A DNA stretch of 64,000 nt, taken from Patescibacteria group bacterium. Lineage in GTDB: Bacteria > Patescibacteriota > Patescibacteriia > JAXHNJ01. Positions within the stretch are counted from its first letter, which is position 1. Every line of letters begins with the position of its first letter. A program made the translations under genes and the position numbers. Location of the stretch: the NCBI GenBank assembly GCA_034520665.1, contig JAXHNJ010000002.1:480660-544659 (forward strand), read 5' to 3'. The notes beneath the pieces are model-generated. The model worked only from the letters and a program-made list of their open reading frames with translations, was not told where the DNA came from and did not search any database. Below are positions 599 through 39,066 of this stretch, piece after piece.

Positions 599-631
599 AC
601 CTGATTTTATCGCGGATCCACGATGCGCAAT

Positions 632-898
632 TTATTTTTTAATTAATTTTTCAATAGCTTTTCGCTTTTTCCAAGATTTTATTTGTTTTTCTCGTTTTCT
701 TGCCTTTGATAAATATTTAAATGTTTCAGTATAAACTATTTTCCATGGAATATATCTTTTTGTAGATTTTACCTTACCTTTGTTATGCTGGTTTAATCTT
801 TTTGTTAAGTCTTCACAACTGCCAATATAATAAGAATTATTAATAGTTGATTTTAATATATATAAATAATACATTACATAATATTTATTTGTGCGCAT
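632..898 (-). CDS. GIY-YIG nuclease family protein (88 aa)
   Basis: N-terminal motif YVMYYLYILKS...YYIGSCEDL...R..QHN matches the GIY-YIG core. Start codon lies 5 nt after a duplicated tRNA-Ala 5-prime half. Stop lies 12 nt before the leader of the intact tRNA-Ala. Confidence 0.8.
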   Translation of the reverse strand: MRTNKYYVMYYLYILKSTINNSYYIGSCEDLTKRLNQHNKGKVKSTKRYIPWKIVYTETFKYLSKARKREKQIKSWKKRKAIEKLIKK

Positions 899-903
899 CG
901 GGA

Positions 904-985: not shown

Positions 986-1076
986 CAAATGCGGTGCTTT
1001 ACCAAAATGAGTCCCGACCTTTTAGGTCGTGGATCCTCGACTCGCGCCTAAGGCGGAGTCGGGACTAAGGAGCCCA
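986..1076 (-). repeat. degenerate tRNA-Ala 5-prime copy interrupted by a 53-nt IR-bounded mini-element (1012-1064)
   Basis: Minus-strand reading GGGCTCCTTAG-[TCCCG...GGATCCTCGAC...CGGGA]-CTCATTTTGGTAAAGCACCGCATTTG resembles tRNA-Ala 1-35 with an insertion between positions 10 and 11. Element has terminal inverted repeats TCCCGAC/GTCGGGA. Confidence 0.7.
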
Positions 1077-2343: not shown

Positions 2344-3255
2344 TCAAGACTTTAAATTGTTGAGTGGGTTTTGAAAATTTTGAGGGGGTTTAACCTCATA
2401 CTCTTGCCATTTGTTATTTAAATTATAAAAGCCGATTTTTTGAGCATGTAACATAAGTCTTGGCCAAGATTGATTATCAAATTTTTTTATATTATATTTT
2501 TTATCACCAATAACTGGATGGCCCAAAGCTTTAAAGTGAACTCTGATTTGATTAGTTCTTCCAGTGAGTGTATTTATTTTTATTAAGGAATATTTTTTTA
2601 TTTTCTCTATTAATTTATATCTAGTGATAGCTTTCCTCCCTTTTTTATTTTTTGGTTTAGAAACTATTATTCCTTTTTTTGAACGAGCGATGGGAAAATT
2701 TATCTCTCCTTCATATTTTTCTAAAAGTCCGTGAACCAGCGCCAAATATTCTTTTTTTATCTGGTGGTCTTTAAATTGATTTTTTAAATTTTCAAACATG
2801 GCTTGATTTTTAGCCACGATCATAATTCCGGAAACATTTTTATCTAGACGATGAACAATACCTGGTCTTAGATTATCTTCTCCTACTTTTTTAATGGTTG
2901 AATTATAATTAATTAGTCGGCCAGCCAAAGTATCTTTTTCACTTTTTAAAGTGGGGTGAACCAACAAACCAACCGGTTTATTTATAATTAAGTAATTTTT
3001 TTCTTCTTTGAAAAGTGGCAGCTTTTTTTCTGATAATTTTAATTCTGGCTCGGGTGGTCTTTTGTAATCAATTTTAATAATATCATCTTTTTTTAAAAAA
3101 TAATGAACAGAAATTAGCTTCTTATTAACTTTTACTCGGCCCTGTTTAATCAATTTTTGAATATAAGAGCGCGAGCAATTTGGGAATTCTTGAGCTAAAA
3201 ATTTATCCAGTCTTTCTTTTTCTGCTTTCTGATTTACTTTTATTTTTTTTAGCAT
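2344..3255 (-). CDS. rluD: RluA-family 23S rRNA pseudouridine synthase with N-terminal S4 domain
   Basis: HRLDKNVSGIMIVAKNQ catalytic motif. S4-like N-terminus LDKFLAQEF. Confidence 0.8.
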   Translation of the reverse strand: MLKKIKVNQKAEKERLDKFLAQEFPNCSRSYIQKLIKQGRVKVNKKLISVHYFLKKDDIIKIDYKRPPEPELKLSEKKLPLFKEEKNYLIINKPVGLLVHPTLKSEKDTLAGRLINYNSTIKKVGEDNLRPGIVHRLDKNVSGIMIVAKNQAMFENLKNQFKDHQIKKEYLALVHGLLEKYEGEINFPIARSKKGIIVSKPKNKKGRKAITRYKLIEKIKKYSLIKINTLTGRTNQIRVHFKALGHPVIGDKKYNIKKFDNQSWPRLMLHAQKIGFYNLNNKWQEYEVKPPQNFQNPLNNLKS

Positions 3256-4735
3256 AAAGATAATTTTTTAAAAATTCGAGAGCTTGCTTCTTATTTTTAA
3301 TTTGTGAATTAAGTTGCTGTTCTCTGGCTATGGATAAAAGTTCGCCAATTAAAGGACCTCTTTTTATATTAAGATTTTTTATAATATCATGCCCGTTTAT
3401 CAAAGGTTTGGGTAGTGCTTTTCTTTTTTTGTCCATATTCTTCATTTCCTTAATCCGTTTAAGCATTTTTTCTAAACTTTTTGTATTTGCTTTACCCTTA
3501 GCTGGTAAGCTGCCCAATGTATCAGCCAGTATAATTTTCAATAATTTTTCTCCCGGTACTCTAGGGTTAAAAAATATTTTTTCTACTGTGCTAGCTCTTA
3601 AATTATAAGGGTCATCAACAATAAGAAGCATATGTCTTTTTACCAACCAGATAATATTTTCTTTTTTCACTTTACCCGTACTTTCCAGCTTCAATCTATC
3701 AATAATATCACTGGTCATTTCTGCTCCAATAGTATCATGAGCGTCAAAACGAATTCGATTAGTGCCATCTTTTTTGGGAGTCCTGATAGTTTTAGCTTTA
3801 CCGATATCATGAAAAATAATAGCTAATATTACTTCCGGGTCTTTAGTTCTTCCGGGCATTATTTTTTTATAAAGAGGTGAATTTAATTTTTCTAGAGCTA
3901 AGCGGGTATGCACAAAAACATCTCCTTCAGAATGGTATCTAACAGGTTGCGGTACACCTTTTAGATTTTCAATTTCCGGAATTAAGTGCTTAAAAATATT
4001 CATCTCATCAAAAATATCAAAAGCTCTTAAAGGATTAGCTTCAAAAGTATTAAGCAGTTCTTTAGCCATAACTTCCCGAGCCAAGCTTTTACTTTTTAAT
4101 TTCAGTGAGAAATTTTTGATGGCCTTGGCTGTTTTTTCTTCCAGTTCAAAGCTAAGCTGGCAGCAAAAGCGCAAAGCCCTTAAGATTCTAGTATAATCTT
4201 CTTTAAATCTTTTTTCAGCCTGGCCGACAGCCCGGATTTGTTTACTAGCCAAATCAGATAAGCCATTAAATTTATCAATTAATTTTTTATTTTTTATATC
4301 ATAAGCCAAGGCATTGATAGTAAAATCTCTTCTTTTTAAGTCTTTTTCAATGGGTAGCCGAGCCTTTGACTGAACTTTAAAATCCCGATAACCTCCGGTC
4401 ATTTTTAAGGAATGTTCTGTTCTTGGCAAAGCTATATCAATAGCTTCAATTTTTGAATTTTTAGGGACAAACTTAAAAACACCAAAAGATTTACCAACCA
4501 GGTTTACTTTACCCGATTTTTTTAAAAAGTTTTCTAATTTTTTAGCTGATAAATTACGAACCACAAAATCAAAATCTTTAGTTTTTCTTTTCAATATTAT
4601 ATCACGGACAGCACCACCGACTAGGTAGATTTCAGCCTGGGAGAATTTTTTTAATACTTTGTTAATAAATGATAAAGCCGGCTCTGTTTTAAGAGCCTTT
4701 TGGAATATTTTGATATTTATATCTTTCTTCTTCAT
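3203..4735 (-). CDS. cca: CCA-adding tRNA nucleotidyltransferase / polyA polymerase family with C-terminal HD domain
   Basis: GGAVRD..DFDFVV nucleotidyltransferase head motif. HDIGK HD motif. The true stop may be earlier than the overlap with rluD suggests. Confidence 0.8.
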   Translation of the reverse strand: MKKKDINIKIFQKALKTEPALSFINKVLKKFSQAEIYLVGGAVRDIILKRKTKDFDFVVRNLSAKKLENFLKKSGKVNLVGKSFGVFKFVPKNSKIEAIDIALPRTEHSLKMTGGYRDFKVQSKARLPIEKDLKRRDFTINALAYDIKNKKLIDKFNGLSDLASKQIRAVGQAEKRFKEDYTRILRALRFCCQLSFELEEKTAKAIKNFSLKLKSKSLAREVMAKELLNTFEANPLRAFDIFDEMNIFKHLIPEIENLKGVPQPVRYHSEGDVFVHTRLALEKLNSPLYKKIMPGRTKDPEVILAIIFHDIGKAKTIRTPKKDGTNRIRFDAHDTIGAEMTSDIIDRLKLESTGKVKKENIIWLVKRHMLLIVDDPYNLRASTVEKIFFNPRVPGEKLLKIILADTLGSLPAKGKANTKSLEKMLKRIKEMKNMDKKRKALPKPLINGHDIIKNLNIKRGPLIGELLSIAREQQLNSQIKNKKQALEFLKNYLYAKKNKSKSESRKRKTG

Positions 4736-5902: not shown

Positions 5903-6072
5903 CGACCCCTCCACATTTTATCTCTCCGCTAAACTAAGCGTTTAGTTATTATTTTTAAATGATTGTTTTTCAATGCGCCTGGTCTCCCTGCGGGAGACGA
6001 CCCCCATTTTACCGGTCCGCTAAACTAAAGGTTTAGTCATTATTTTTAAGTGATTGTTTTTCAATGCGCCTG
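5903..6072 (-). repeat. two tandem 85-90 bp units, each a degenerate 3-prime fragment of tRNA-Ile(UAU) plus about 50 bp trailer
   Basis: Unit 1 (5903-5982) lacks the T-arm. Unit 2 (5983-6072) has the T-arm replaced by GTCTCCC-TGC-GGGAGAC. Both end in GCGCCTGG (the tRNA acceptor 3-prime strand) with conserved trailer CCGCTAAACTAA.GGTTTAGT.ATTATTTTTAA.TGATTGTTTTTCAATGCGCC. Confidence 0.8.
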
Positions 6073-27500: not shown

Positions 27501-27882
27501 ATATACACTAGTTTAAATAGGTCGAAATTAGACTAAAATTAAATAAAAAGGAACAAAAAATTCATCAAATTTAACCAAGTACATTTAAACAAATAGGAGA
27601 AAAAACAGTGATCTCTAAGTTGTATTTGGAGCTCTCTGTTTTTTCTTCAAATTTTAAAAGGAAAAAAAGAACTTTGACAACTAAAATGTGACAGAAAAAT
27701 GGGTTTTTTGAAATTCCTTTTTAGGAAAAGTAAGTGGTGGAAATTAAGAGGATAAGATTAGGATCAAATATAATCTTAAATATAGATTTTTTTTGATGCA
27801 TCTTGTTTTAGCCTTTCAATTTCCACCACTTGCCAACAAAAAAATATTTTTTTCGAGGATTTATTTTAAAATCCTCAATCCA

Positions 27883-29459
<1,577 letters not shown>

Positions 29460-29579: not shown

Positions 29580-29679
29580 GGTAAATTATATTATATTATT
29601 AGCTAAAAATAGACGGCTATTTCCGATGTTTTGACAAAGTCAAATATCGTAACTCAACACTTATTAACAATCAAAAATT

Positions 29680-29881
29680 TTTTAAAAGTAAATAATAATA
29701 TAATAAAATTTTGGGCGGCTAGTCCCGTTCCGTCGCTTGGCGACAGAACGCGGATCCTCGACCCATAGGGTCGGGACTCAGCTCTTGTAAAACCAAATAT
29801 CTTTTTAAAAGTAAATAATAATATAATAAAATTTTGGGCGGCTAGCTAAGCTGGTTAGAGCGTCTCACTGACCCGCCTGCC
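29680..29881 (+). repeat. two direct units: 43-bp tRNA-Ile leader plus tRNA-Ile 5-prime fragment
   Basis: TTTAAAAGTAAATAATAATATAATAAAATTTTGGGCGGCTAG at 29680-29722 and 29803-29845. Unit 1 carries a 54-nt insertion after position 10. Unit 2 carries tRNA positions 1-36 and then CCCGCCTGCC. Confidence 0.85.
29723..29776 (+). mobile_element. 54-nt mini-element with terminal inverted repeats TCCCG/CGGGA and core GGATCCTCGAC, inserted at position 10/11 of a tRNA-Ile pseudo-copy
   Basis: Second copy at 1012-1064 in opposite orientation relative to its host tRNA-Ala pseudo-copy. Same insertion point TAG^CTCAG. Confidence 0.55.
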
Positions 29882-29950
29882 AAAGTACGAAACCTTATAA
29901 ATTCTTGTTCTTATTTATATAATTACATAGCATTATTTTCCTTTGATGGT

Positions 29951-30027
29951 GGGCGGCTAGCTCAGCTGGTTAGAGCGTCTCACTGATAATGAGGAGGTCG
30001 AAGGTTCGAGTCCTTCGCCGCCCACCA
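29951..30027 (+). tRNA. tRNA-Ile (anticodon GAT)
   Basis: GGGCGGC acceptor stem, anticodon loop CTGATAA, T-loop TTCGAGT, CCA encoded. Confidence 0.92.
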
Positions 30028-30065
30028 TCAGTTGATAATTAAAAAATACTTAGTACGGCGGGTAG

Positions 30066-30107
30066 ATAATGAGGAGGTCGTCTCCAGAAGGGAGACCGTG
30101 CCACCAA
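30066..30107 (+). repeat. tRNA-Ile(GAU) 3-prime fragment copy with T-arm replaced by GTCTCC-AGAA-GGGAGAC hairpin
   Basis: GATAATGAGGAGGTCG-hairpin-CCGTGCCACCA. Confidence 0.75.
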
Positions 30108-30413: not shown

Positions 30414-30510
30414 TGCTTGGCGGGTGGAGCGAAGGACTGAAAATTTTACCCCGCCCTTGAGTGAAAACGAATAGTGCGAGGCCTTGCGTCACCAGTTCTG
30501 CGACTTTGGC
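30414..30510 (+). pseudogene. degenerate tRNA-Phe copy with 37-nt insertion in the anticodon loop and truncated D-arm
   Basis: GGAGCGAAGGACTGAAAAT + [TTTACCCCGCCCTTGAGTGAAAACGAATAGTGCGAGG] + CCTTGCGTCACCAGTTC, then diverges. Confidence 0.7.
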
Positions 30511-30525: not shown

Positions 30526-30573
30526 CCCGGATGTAGCTCAGTCGGCTAGAGCGCTTGCTTTGGCCCGCCTGCC
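30526..30573 (+). repeat. orphan tRNA 5-prime half (ends in anticodon loop TTTGG) joined to CCCGCCTGCC
   Basis: CCCGGATGTAGCTCAGTCGGCTAGAGCGCTTGCTTTGG then CCCGCCTGCC. The same 10-mer follows the tRNA-Ile 5-prime half at 29872-29881. Confidence 0.7.
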
Positions 30574-30581
30574 TTGACTGA

Positions 30582-30655
30582 CGGGGTATAGCGAAGTTGG
30601 CTATCGCGCCTGCTTTGGGAGCAGGAGATCGTCGGTTCAAGTCCGACTACCCCGA
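30582..30655 (+). tRNA. tRNA-Pro (anticodon TGG)
   Basis: C1:G72 acceptor stem CGGGGTA/TACCCCG, anticodon loop TTTGGGA, T-loop TTCAAGT, discriminator A, no CCA. Confidence 0.85.
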
Positions 30656-30666
30656 TAGCTAAGGCA

Positions 30667-30760
30667 GTCGGGCGGGGAGCAGGAAATCGCGAGTTTGAGT
30701 CTCACATTCCCGACTTAGAGAGAAAAGGTTGTCTCCCAAAGGGAGACGGCCACGACCAAG
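30667..30760 (+). repeat. D-armless tRNA-Pro-like 3-prime fragment followed by GTCTCCC-AAA-GGGAGAC hairpin
   Basis: GTCGGGCGGGGAGCAGGAAATCGCGAGTTTGAGTCTCACATTCCCGAC, then AGGTTGTCTCCCAAAGGGAGAC at 30727-30747. Confidence 0.6.
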
Positions 30761-30790
30761 CGGGTATAGTATAGTGGATTATTATACTAC
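30760..30790 (+). repeat. partial tRNA-Gly(UCC) 5-prime copy (positions 1-30)
   Basis: GCGGGTATAGTATAGTGGATTATTATACTAC versus the gene GCGGGCGTCGTATAGTGGCTATTATGCTAC. Confidence 0.7.
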
Positions 30791-30811
30791 TAAATATTTC
30801 TTAACGAGTAA

Positions 30812-30883
30812 GCGGGCGTCGTATAGTGGCTATTATGCTACCCTTCCAAGGTAGAAACGCCGGTTCGATTCCGGTCGCCCGCT
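30812..30883 (+). tRNA. tRNA-Gly (anticodon TCC)
   Basis: GCGGGCG acceptor stem, anticodon loop CTTCCAA, T-loop TTCGATT, discriminator U, no CCA. Flanked by 13/14 inverted repeat TTCTTAACGAGTAA / TTATTCGTTAAGAA. Confidence 0.88.
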
Positions 30884-30951
30884 TATTCGTTAAGAAGCCA
30901 ATAAATAAATTTGTAGATATTAAGAAAAGGTTCTGCGCCCAAGGTGCATTT

Positions 30952-30982
30952 GTCTCTGACGGAGACTCCGGTCGCCCGCTCC
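30952..30982 (+). repeat. GTCTC-TGAC-GGAGAC hairpin fused to copy of tRNA-Gly 3-prime end (TCCGGTCGCCCGCT)
   Basis: Same architecture as the Ile-UAU and Ile-GAU fragment copies. Confidence 0.7.
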
Positions 30983-31043
30983 AAATTTTATTTAGAAGTA
31001 GGCTATTAAATACTAACTTTAATAAAGTATATTAAAAATTAAA

Positions 31044-38634: not shown

Positions 38635-38657
38635 AGAACCGGCGAATAGAGGTTTTG
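38635..38657 (-). repeat. partial duplicate of tRNA-Cys 3-prime half (GAACCGGCGAATAGAGGTTTTG)
   Basis: 22/22 identity to 38711-38732. Copy begins immediately 3-prime of the anticodon. Confidence 0.8.
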
Positions 38658-38687
38658 TCCCGATTTCTCCAAAATTTTGAAGTTAAG

Positions 38688-38762
<75 letters not shown>

Positions 38763-39066
38763 ATGGCTTCAAAATTTTGTTGAGAAATCGAGGATCCTCG
38801 CAAAAGTACTAGTATATAAAATATTTATTTCATCATTGCGGGACAGACCCCCGCCTAGACTTTACTCCGTCAAATGACGGAGATTTGCTTGCCCCACGAA
38901 GCTTAAAAGCGAAGTGGGGGCTTATGTGGCCGTGAAAATTATAACTGGCGGAGCCGACTCTGTTGCCTAACGGAATGGCCGCGAAAAAATTGGTGGAGAC
39001 TATTTTATATAGAAGACATAAATAACTTTTTAAATATTAACAAATTTTGATTATTTTTTCAAGAGT

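Follow-up and report, generated by a model that had tools for sequence, protein, structure and literature searches.

The closest known system to the DNA described here is that of the Ssn nucleases with their SRM/NTS hairpins: ~94-residue single-domain GIY-YIG proteins (cd10448) that bind hairpin repeats (NTS in Neisseria, CGTCATTCCCGCGMAVGCGGGAATCYRG; SRM generally) solely as single-stranded DNA (ssDNA) and cut a few nucleotides (nt) upstream of them (Chenal et al., Nat Commun 2025, PMC11893778). SRM repeats flank the nuclease gene in most genomes; their likeness to insertion sequences was noted and mobility was left as a hypothesis, and tRNA goes unmentioned in that work (PMC11893778). The present analysis concerns a 64-kb stretch of contig JAXHNJ010000002.1 from a Patescibacteria group bacterium (the whole of this stretch is referred to below as the window) and, within it, two small double-hairpin elements, designated E1 and E2, each of which splits a fragment of a tRNA gene.

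E1 and E2 belong to a double-hairpin family that is abundant in Patescibacteria and Bacteroidales, inserts precisely, exists in gene-bearing and gene-less forms, is tied to a GIY-YIG nuclease and is biased toward tRNA genes. Forms that carry cargo interrupt a tRNA gene at its anticodon loop and bring with them an intact tRNA gene of the same anticodon; the displaced halves remain as dead fragments, and it is such fragments that host E1 and E2. The interpretation that we prefer, and regard as probably correct, is that E1 and E2 are non-autonomous copies of a two-hairpin DNA element whose relatives carry the gene of an ~80-residue GIY-YIG protein, often together with a tRNA gene, and that the element spreads by a mechanism involving nicking of ssDNA. 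A bolder proposal, which we put forward tentatively and with somewhat less than even confidence, is that the complete form represents a class of selfish DNA not recognised before, a double-hairpin cassette of 0.3-0.5 kb that employs an Ssn-like ssDNA nuclease to enter the anticodon loop or D-arm of tRNA genes and offsets the harm by supplying a tRNA of the same anticodon, steadily replacing the tRNA genes of its hosts by horizontally acquired ones.

E1 and E2

The skeleton common to E1 and E2 (coordinates of these and other features are collected in Table 1) is TCCCGA-hairpin-TCGNGGATCCNCGA-hairpin-TCGGGA. The two are the sole matches in the window to the pattern TCCCG-N(5-35)-GGATCCNCGA-N(5-35)-TCGGGA, for which 100 dinucleotide-preserving shuffles yield an expectation of 0.00, so that the elements, which had been pointed out in an earlier note made by reading the sequence, are present where they were placed and are not due to chance. 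Both fold far better than shuffled sequence, into two adjacent hairpins each, with z-scores of -4.3 to -5.7 that are reached on either strand equally (-4.7/-5.6 for E1). Rfam searches, in which gathering thresholds were applied to the entire window and E ≤ 1 to the regions of the two elements, return nothing on E1 or E2. Two RNA candidates were rejected: a tRNA intron of the group I or bulge-helix-bulge type (no Rfam intron match; the stem extends as G-C into the flanks, where bulges are absent), and a small self-cleaving ribozyme (no match at E ≤ 1; no conserved unpaired core).

The elements are not near-identical, as had been supposed: overall identity is 59% with both plus strands compared and 75% with the minus strand of E1 set against the plus strand of E2, and the boxes alone are identical. 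The better of these alignments (42/56 positions identical) matches long hairpin to long hairpin and short to short, the long one coming first when each element is read along the direction of its host tRNA. E1 and E2 are therefore inserted in the same orientation relative to their host tRNAs, not in the opposite ones that were proposed. Their shared GGATCCTCGAC cannot define orientation, because the element is a near-perfect dyad and GGATCCTCGAC is one half of its palindromic centre.

E2 interrupts, after nt 10, a perfect copy of the first 17 nt of tRNA-Ile(GAT) (GGGCGGCTAG-E2-CTCAGCT), and E1 splits a diverged tRNA-Ala-like 5' half at TAG^CTCA on the minus strand. At both sites the break, AG^CT, falls between G10 and C11 with zero bases duplicated or lost, which bears out the earlier placement at tRNA position 10/11 of degenerate copies. 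The inverted repeats that bound the elements are real; of the terminal repeat AGTCCCG/CGGGACT originally described, the AG and CT belong to the tRNA and not to the element. Neither ARAGORN nor Rfam calls a tRNA in the dead tRNA-Ala-like half, and the intact tRNA-Ile(GAT) gene lies at 29951-30027. E2 stands just 3' of the first of two 44-nt repeats, within the first tRNA-Ile fragment of a tandem duplication that also comprises a promoter-like region (promoter-like sites at 29681-29709 and 29804-29832). A terminator-like site was sought at E1 and E2 and found at neither, nor does the 3' flank profile of the wider family of copies contain a run of T; an intrinsic terminator is thereby ruled out.

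A dispersed family of DNA dyads

The general anatomy of the element is box 1 (TCCCGA), hairpin 1, a central box 2-box 3 (TCG(N)GGA-TCC(N)CGA), hairpin 2 and box 4 (TCGGGA). Box 1 pairs with box 2 and box 3 with box 4, with one bulged base in each case, and the entire element is a dyad. A scan of genomes, one per species, finds true two-hairpin copies in Saccharibacteria, Paceibacterota, Yanofsky-, Magasanik-, Buchanan- and Tagabacteria and other Patescibacteria, as well as in Bacteroidales, Rikenellaceae and some metagenome-assembled genomes (MAGs) labelled Gammaproteobacteria. The first pattern used was too loose for GC-rich genomes; its matches in Actinomycetota and similar taxa are mostly chance and were removed by a GC filter and inspection of folds. 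A stricter pattern was run on metagenomes, and the strict set pooled from the two public collections (genomes and metagenomes) contains at least 148 unique copies beyond the window, 36-89 nt in length with a median of 57; E1 and E2 are thus not the only two. A phage origin was considered and dropped, with a single match among 2.9 million viral contigs.

In 72 copies, reduced to the boxes and the five stem pairs next to each box, compensatory changes occur at 10 of the 10 variable stem pairs and 98% of cells are paired; double-change cells number 284 as against 77.5 in shuffles, and the covariation score is 0.462, compared with 0.086 for shuffled and at most 0.19 for slid partners. Stems reach a median of 5 base pairs (bp) past the boxes (0.6 in shuffles), and 137 distinct stem sequences are found among 298 hairpins. 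All of the invariant bases lie within the paired boxes, and there are no conserved unpaired nucleotides. Only ~9 cells of the covariation set are G-U. Wherever one strand has a G-U pair, the complementary strand has a C-A mismatch; this scarcity thus suggests that both DNA strands must fold, and it argues against a structure formed in RNA. The element is a DNA element, not an RNA or a ribozyme.

The single hairpin may be the minimal unit. Single units (TCCCG-loop-CGGGA) or whole degenerate elements are also seen nested in the stems or loops of other copies in four of the loci that were fetched for comparison (L-numbers, here and below, are the labels of these loci): L051 (4957-5044), L119 (2963-3036), L053 (146-217) and L198 (about 780-880). 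Some of these lie instead a few bases apart within one dead tRNA fragment.

Where the copies sit

Statistics of position, target and neighbours refer to the matches listed, 150 copies with 1.03 Mb of surrounding DNA. The base preceding the element is G and the base following it is C, each in 66% of copies, with T/A-rich sequence beyond; wherever a paralogous intact tRNA permits the check, the flanking G and C belong to the target. Insertion is mostly at (T/A)G^C(A/T), and comparison with paralogs for E1, E2, L029, L066, L078 and L125 establishes that it is precise and occurs without target duplication. Copies also avoid coding sequence, as judged from the healed junctions, 42% of which fall in a long open frame, compared with 79% of positions drawn at random from those loci.

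Nineteen of the 150 copies (13%) lie in tRNA-like DNA, whereas the share of tRNA genes in the sequence searched is 0.7%, and 18 of these 19 are located at tRNA nt 10-23, that is, in the D-arm, the remaining one being in a T-loop. The D-stem specificity that was suggested for the two window copies survives as this bias; as a specificity it does not, since the positions used across the various forms include 10, 11, 15, 16, 18-20, 22 and 23, the anticodon loop and the T-loop, and 87% of copies lie outside tRNA-like DNA. A single target site is ruled out on the same grounds. The D-arm bias may reflect a preference for the target, or it may reflect selection, since the cassette would be more stable once the displaced 5' half no longer shared unbroken homology with the new tRNA. 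Most tRNA-located copies have an intact gene for the same tRNA within a few hundred bases downstream. When each of the 150 copies was removed in turn and the healed sequence submitted to ARAGORN, none proved to have interrupted an otherwise intact tRNA.

Cargo-carrying forms and replacement tRNAs

A 395-nt member of the family sits exactly between nt 36 and 37 of another tRNA-Ala(TGC) in the window; the loop of its hairpin 1 holds a nuclease gene and that of its hairpin 2 an intact tRNA-Ala(TGC) (Table 1). The displaced 5' half of the tRNA-Ala is preceded, on its own strand, by a remnant of the central box and tRNA leader of an earlier copy. The displaced gene was therefore itself the cargo of an earlier element, and the insertion is nested. 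A half element carrying tRNA-Cys, with the displaced tRNA-Cys segment abutting its TCGGGA end, lies elsewhere in the window; the anticodon breaks at TG^CA for both tRNA-Ala and tRNA-Cys.

Table 1. Double-hairpin elements, nuclease genes and associated tRNA sequences in the window
Feature	Position	Strand	Details
E1, double-hairpin element without an open reading frame (ORF)	1012-1064 (53 nt)	none	Hairpin units 1012-1033 and 1034-1064; unit scan, unique pattern match
E2, double-hairpin element without an ORF	29723-29776 (54 nt)	none	Hairpin units 29723-29754 and 29755-29776; unit scan, unique pattern match
Dead tRNA-Ala-like 5' half, GGGCTCCTTAG-E1-CTCATTTTGGTAAAGCACCGCATTTG	986-1075	minus	Pieces 1075-1065 and 1011-986; truncated inside anticodon; healed junction matches tRNA-Ala D-arm sequences
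Dead tRNA-Ile(GAT) 5' fragment	29713-29783	plus	nt 1-10 (29713-29722), E2, nt 11-17 (29777-29783); healed junction 17/17 identical to intact tRNA-Ile
Tandem duplication of promoter-like region and tRNA-Ile start	29679-29845	plus	44-nt repeat at 29679-29722 and 29802-29845
Cargo element TCCCGA-TGCGCA-(GIY-YIG ORF)-TGCGCA-TCGTGGATCCGCGA-leader TAAAATCAGGT-(tRNA-Ala(TGC))-trailer ACCTGATTTTA-TCGGGA	509-903 (395 nt)	minus	Hairpin 1, 617-903; hairpin 2, 509-616
Single-domain GIY-YIG nuclease gene, 80 amino acids (aa) (P0001)	632-874	minus	In loop of hairpin 1; PF01541, E 4e-17
Intact tRNA-Ala(TGC), replacement copy	523-598	minus	In loop of hairpin 2; ARAGORN and Rfam; enclosed by 14-bp leader/trailer stem
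Displaced tRNA-Ala(TGC) nt 1-36	904-939	minus	Ends ...TTTG within anticodon; abuts cargo element; 100% match to intact copy
Displaced tRNA-Ala(TGC) nt 37-50	495-508	minus	Abuts other end of cargo element; 100% match
Remnant of central box and tRNA leader of earlier copy, AGATCCGCGATAAAATCAGGT	940-960	minus	
Half element CGAGGATCCTCGA-leader-(tRNA-Cys)-trailer-TCGGGA	38658-38800	minus	tRNA-Cys at 38688-38762
Displaced tRNA-Cys nt 34-55	38636-38657	minus	Abuts TCGGGA end; 100% match
Second GIY-YIG ORF, 89 aa	1556-1825	minus	Directly followed by intact tRNA-Leu (1472-1555); preceded by tRNA-Leu-like 5' fragment (1882-1896) and a different hairpin

The architecture recurs in L256, in which a nuclease ORF and a tRNA-Ala(CGC) gene lie inside the anticodon loop of another tRNA-Ala(CGC), and from which removal of the cargo element together with a degenerate mini-copy in the T-loop generates a tRNA-Ala(CGC) that ARAGORN accepts. 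Cargo and displaced tRNA have the same anticodon and are identical at only 51 of 73 bases; the cargo tRNA is therefore foreign. Duplications accompany some copies. L179 resembles E2 in having a tandem duplication of a promoter-like region and tRNA nt 1-17, the first copy of which holds the element, and L177 contains two copies of the unit consisting of tRNA nt 1-18 followed by the element, one to each side of the nuclease gene.

Two groups of related loci provide further observations on gene-bearing forms. L254 and L255, from one Nomurabacteria MAG, contain two nuclease-bearing copies between paralogous gene pairs with identical flanks (...gccaaaattg, the element, caaaaaagatatgg...); the element was apparently duplicated together with its neighbour genes, and in L255 its centre is deleted and the ORF is fused to hairpin 2. 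L125-L130, which are Woesebacteria-like contigs, share the same GIY-YIG/tRNA-Glu cassette (about 2740-4600). In L127, L128 and L130 the cassette is followed by a gene for an ~570-residue recombinase of the resolvase family (PF00239); conjugation-like genes lie downstream of the recombinase in L127 and L128, and L130 ends within the recombinase gene. L125, L126 and L129 have neither, and an integrative element at the 3' end of tRNA-Glu is thus polymorphic for presence or absence among these contigs.

The nuclease and its link to the hairpins

PF01541 is the sole domain found in the protein encoded by the cargo element, and it occupies residues 9-79 of an 88-residue ORF (80 residues from the annotated start). 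The protein is 100% identical to an NCBI entry, 'GIY-YIG nuclease family protein', from a Patescibacteria MAG (698-kb contig), and is 36-40% identical to the hairpin-flanked single-domain GIY-YIG proteins of Spirosoma and Sinorhizobium. Its best solved relatives are UPF0213 proteins (1zg2, E 2.5e-5) and, weakly, SLX1. The catalytic residues Y5, Y16, R26, H30 and E62 are invariant in the alignment. The NCBIfam model for group I intron endonucleases scores 24 bits against a cutoff of 56 and matches over its first 40 positions only.

ORFs of this GIY-YIG clade number 21 in the 1.03 Mb around the copies, and 12 of the 21 lie within 400 bp of a strict copy, at a P of about 2e-5 that is optimistic because copies from related organisms are not fully independent. 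The usual order in these loci is element, GIY-YIG gene, tRNA gene, with the ORF on the strand of the tRNA. The association extends to enclosure: the ORF lies within hairpin 1 in the window (617-903) and in L121, L254 and L256. Layouts that may be called 'autonomous' are shown by homologues fetched by protein identity, among them L256 and L177 as described above; in L121-L124 and L254 the ORF occupies the loop of hairpin 1, hairpin 2 is short and the surroundings are ordinary intergenic DNA.

How the element may move

By analogy with SsnA and NTS, the nuclease would recognise the hairpins in ssDNA, for example at replication forks or in heavily transcribed tRNA genes, and would nick both strands beside the hairpins, the dyad symmetry of the element giving either strand an identical 5' hairpin. 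The element might then be copied or integrated by host recombination or repair, and the tandemly duplicated 5' parts of tRNAs have the appearance of single-crossover products. Solo mini-copies could form when the loop cargo is lost or when flanking copies recombine, and would persist only where they are harmless, in intergenic DNA and dead pieces of tRNA; E1 and E2 would persist because the tRNA pieces that host them were already dead.

Several considerations, in addition to the partial dependence among copies already mentioned, weigh against this account. Mobility is deduced from copy number, diversity of context and comparison of paralogs. A hydrolytic GIY-YIG nuclease cannot itself join DNA, which leaves the integration step without an explanation. 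The cut made by SsnA lies several nucleotides upstream of its hairpin and need not coincide with the exact boundary of the element, and no match to the published SRM search motif occurs in the window. Copies in duplicated tRNA 5' pieces, as in L177, may be passive passengers and not fresh insertions. Finally, 87% of copies lack a GIY-YIG gene in the 400 bp to either side, although this is to be expected of non-autonomous copies.

Other explanations

The main rival explanation, which we consider unlikely, is that the hairpin pairs are domesticated recognition sites of the GIY-YIG ssDNA nuclease, no longer mobile and retained by the host to modulate recombination or transformation near tRNA genes in the manner of NTS in Neisseria, and that their spread is ancient or passive, through duplication or gene conversion. 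The only studied relatives, SsnA and NTS, do control transforming ssDNA, and mobility is merely hypothesised for them (PMC11893778); many copies, moreover, lie inside tandem duplications and are possibly carried along passively. What tells against domestication is the occurrence of copies in diverse unrelated flanks and in different phyla, the precise insertions into tRNA fragments at 10 or more positions, the nested insertions (904-960 of the window; L051 and L198) and the foreign cargo tRNA of L256, which indicates arrival from elsewhere.

Repetitive extragenic palindromes and bacterial interspersed mosaic elements (REP/BIME) and the IS200/IS605 elements form a class characterised by paired palindromes, precise insertion without duplication and dependence on hairpins. 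The notion that the present elements are of this type and are mobilised by an HUH (Y1) transposase encoded elsewhere, GIY-YIG genes being mere frequent neighbours, strikes us as improbable, even though their paired palindromic units, duplication-free insertion and hairpin dependence are typical of the class (a parallel also raised in PMC11893778). The gene that is enriched beside the hairpins, and enclosed by them, is that of a GIY-YIG protein; cargo lies in hairpin loops and not between left-end and right-end hairpins; and no Y1 transposase was noticed adjoining any copy, although no systematic search for Y1 was made.

That E1 and E2 are structured RNAs, small ribozymes or introns removed from tRNA precursors, is a reading to which we assign very little probability, and it has been largely refuted. 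The strong predicted folds, the location in tRNA-like sequence downstream of promoter-like sites and a terminal-loop cargo that recalls intron-encoded endonucleases are compatible with it. None of the 150 copies leaves an intact tRNA on removal, however, and the hosts in the window are truncated fragments; Rfam at E ≤ 1 returns only tRNAs and noise; conserved unpaired nucleotides are lacking, G-U pairs are nearly absent and both strands fold alike; 87% of copies lie outside tRNA sequence; and SsnA does not act on RNA (PMC11893778). The ribozyme or mobile-RNA interpretation that the earlier note had offered falls on the same evidence. Chance palindromes or assembly artefacts, for which short length alone speaks, are refuted by the expectation of 0 in shuffles, the hundreds of copies in independent assemblies and the strong covariation of the stems.

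Other hairpins and tRNA debris in the window

A second inverted-repeat family with other boxes (CCCGCCTGCC ... GGCAG-GGGCGGG / GGCGGG) is found at 29836-30080 and 30527-30717, and no GIY-YIG ORF is near it. Its repeats enclose the intact tRNA-Ile (29951-30027) and an intact tRNA-Pro (30582-30655). Each intact gene has the 5' half of a displaced tRNA of its own type on one side and the 3' half on the other: for Ile, nt 1-36 (29836-29871) and nt 35-50 (30065-30080), and for Pro, similar halves near 30527-30565 and 30681-30717.

GC-rich tetraloop hairpins (GTCTCC-N4-GGGAGAC and a variant) occur beside displaced 3' remnants of tRNA at 5982-5998, 30080-30096, 30731-30747 and 30952-30966; the window contains six matches, where 0.24 are expected, and the GTCGTCTCC-N4-GGGAGAC hairpin was found in no fetched locus. 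The hairpin replaces the T-arm at 5982-5998 (in a remnant of tRNA-Ile-TAT) and at 30080-30096 (tRNA-Ile-GAT); that at 30731-30747 is just downstream of the Pro-like 3' half, and the variant at 30952-30966 directly precedes the 3' remnant of a tRNA-Gly.

Further debris includes nt 21-38 and 39-55 of a tRNA-Phe split by a 37-nt insertion (30427-30498) and, at 30760-30983, 5' and 3' fragments of tRNA-Gly(TCC) (30760-30790 and 30967-30980) around an intact gene that the inverted repeat TTCTTAACGAGTAA / TTATTCGTTAAGAA bounds on both sides. At 27882-29458 there is a bacterial 16S rRNA gene, with a tRNA cluster after it; no 23S or 5S rRNA was detected in the 64 kb, so that the rRNA genes appear to be unlinked.

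Significance

Ssn nucleases and their hairpins were described only in 2025, and their mobility is a hypothesis. Precise insertions, nesting, gene-less derivatives and a foreign cargo tRNA are the kind of evidence that would make such a system a true mobile element. The link of an Ssn-like nuclease/hairpin system to tRNA appears to be undescribed: no description of a GIY-YIG/tRNA cassette in Patescibacteria (the candidate phyla radiation, CPR) or Bacteroidales was found in the literature searched, nor was the strategy by which an element enters an essential tRNA gene and brings a substitute for it. For annotation, the family offers an explanation of the many tRNA fragments and 'GIY-YIG nuclease family protein' genes found beside tRNAs in CPR genomes, and for the design of ssDNA tools the loci are a natural source of nucleases paired with hairpins whose recognition sequence is new. 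Should the elements indeed be selfish cassettes that replace host tRNA genes, this would give Ssn/SRM its missing role as a mobile element and tRNA genes in Patescibacteria and Bacteroidales would owe much of their turnover to the cassettes, which leave behind layered tRNA fragments and miniature copies such as E1 and E2.

Comparison with known systems

The resemblance to Ssn consists of a single-domain gene for an ~80-95-residue GIY-YIG protein that is flanked or enclosed by short hairpins also occurring as many solo copies, an insertion-sequence-like architecture, and the spacing of the catalytic Y/Y/E residues (Y5, Y16 and E62 in the window protein; Y6, Y17 and E64 in Ssn). By eye, the foot of the hairpin is also like that of NTS, TCCCG...CGGGA followed by TC(C) (NTS: TTCCCGCG...CGCGGGAATC). 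The recognition sequences differ: the SRM motif, HGTCWYN(0-2)YYVSBRHN(0-5)WNVSBRGN(0-2)RNCYNB, is matched on neither strand of the window and has a few scattered matches in other fetched loci, and G here directly abuts TCCCGA, with no GTCWY spacer before the stem. Features of the present family that set it apart from Ssn are the strict dyad of two hairpins with a GGATCC centre, the location of nuclease and tRNA genes inside hairpin loops, and the insertion into tRNA genes with replacement tRNAs; its hosts are Patescibacteria and Bacteroidales, whereas those of Ssn are mainly Pseudomonadota. Distant single-domain GIY-YIG homologues in Sinorhizobium meliloti pSymB (L252) and a Spirosoma plasmid (L253) have long palindromes on both sides, with NTS-like feet (ATCCCTGTG...CACAGGGATCC; GTCATCCCGAGG...) and no exact match to the SRM expression; the CPR proteins lack the C-terminal NPxW tail of these Sinorhizobium and Spirosoma homologues.

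The likeness to miniature inverted-repeat transposable elements (MITEs) that was drawn at the outset for E1 and E2 is broadly correct, which cannot be said of the RNA and single-site parts of the same proposal. The elements are small, multicopy, ORF-less and bounded by inverted repeats, and they have larger coding relatives. They differ from MITEs in that there is no target-site duplication and the whole element, rather than its termini alone, is hairpin; the coding relatives encode a GIY-YIG nuclease only and no transposase, so that the partner is a hydrolytic nuclease in place of a DDE transposase. With REP/BIME and their associated RAYT transposases, and with IS200/IS605, the family shares dependence on hairpins, a probable action on ssDNA, precise duplication-free insertion and paired palindromic units; it departs from them in its enzyme, which is GIY-YIG and not HUH/Y1, and in carrying its cargo in hairpin loops.

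The 80-89-residue proteins consist of the catalytic domain only, unlike the homing endonucleases of the I-TevI/Seg type. Phage T4 SegB (PMC2330249) is also a GIY-YIG gene among tRNA genes, and both may plausibly spread in the same way, through cleavage followed by repair by recombination; enzymes of the SegB type possess a DNA-binding domain at the C terminus and act on double-stranded DNA, and they come with no hairpin framework, replacement tRNA or miniature derivatives. In comparison with tRNA-targeting integrative elements, which restore their target through attP-borne sequence, the cassettes have no integrase, supply a whole tRNA instead of a 3' part and extend over only 0.3-0.5 kb. The parallel nonetheless goes further than the choice of tRNA as a target (anticodon loop, T-loop): in both, a tRNA sequence borne by the element preserves function, and the displaced pieces are left as scars.

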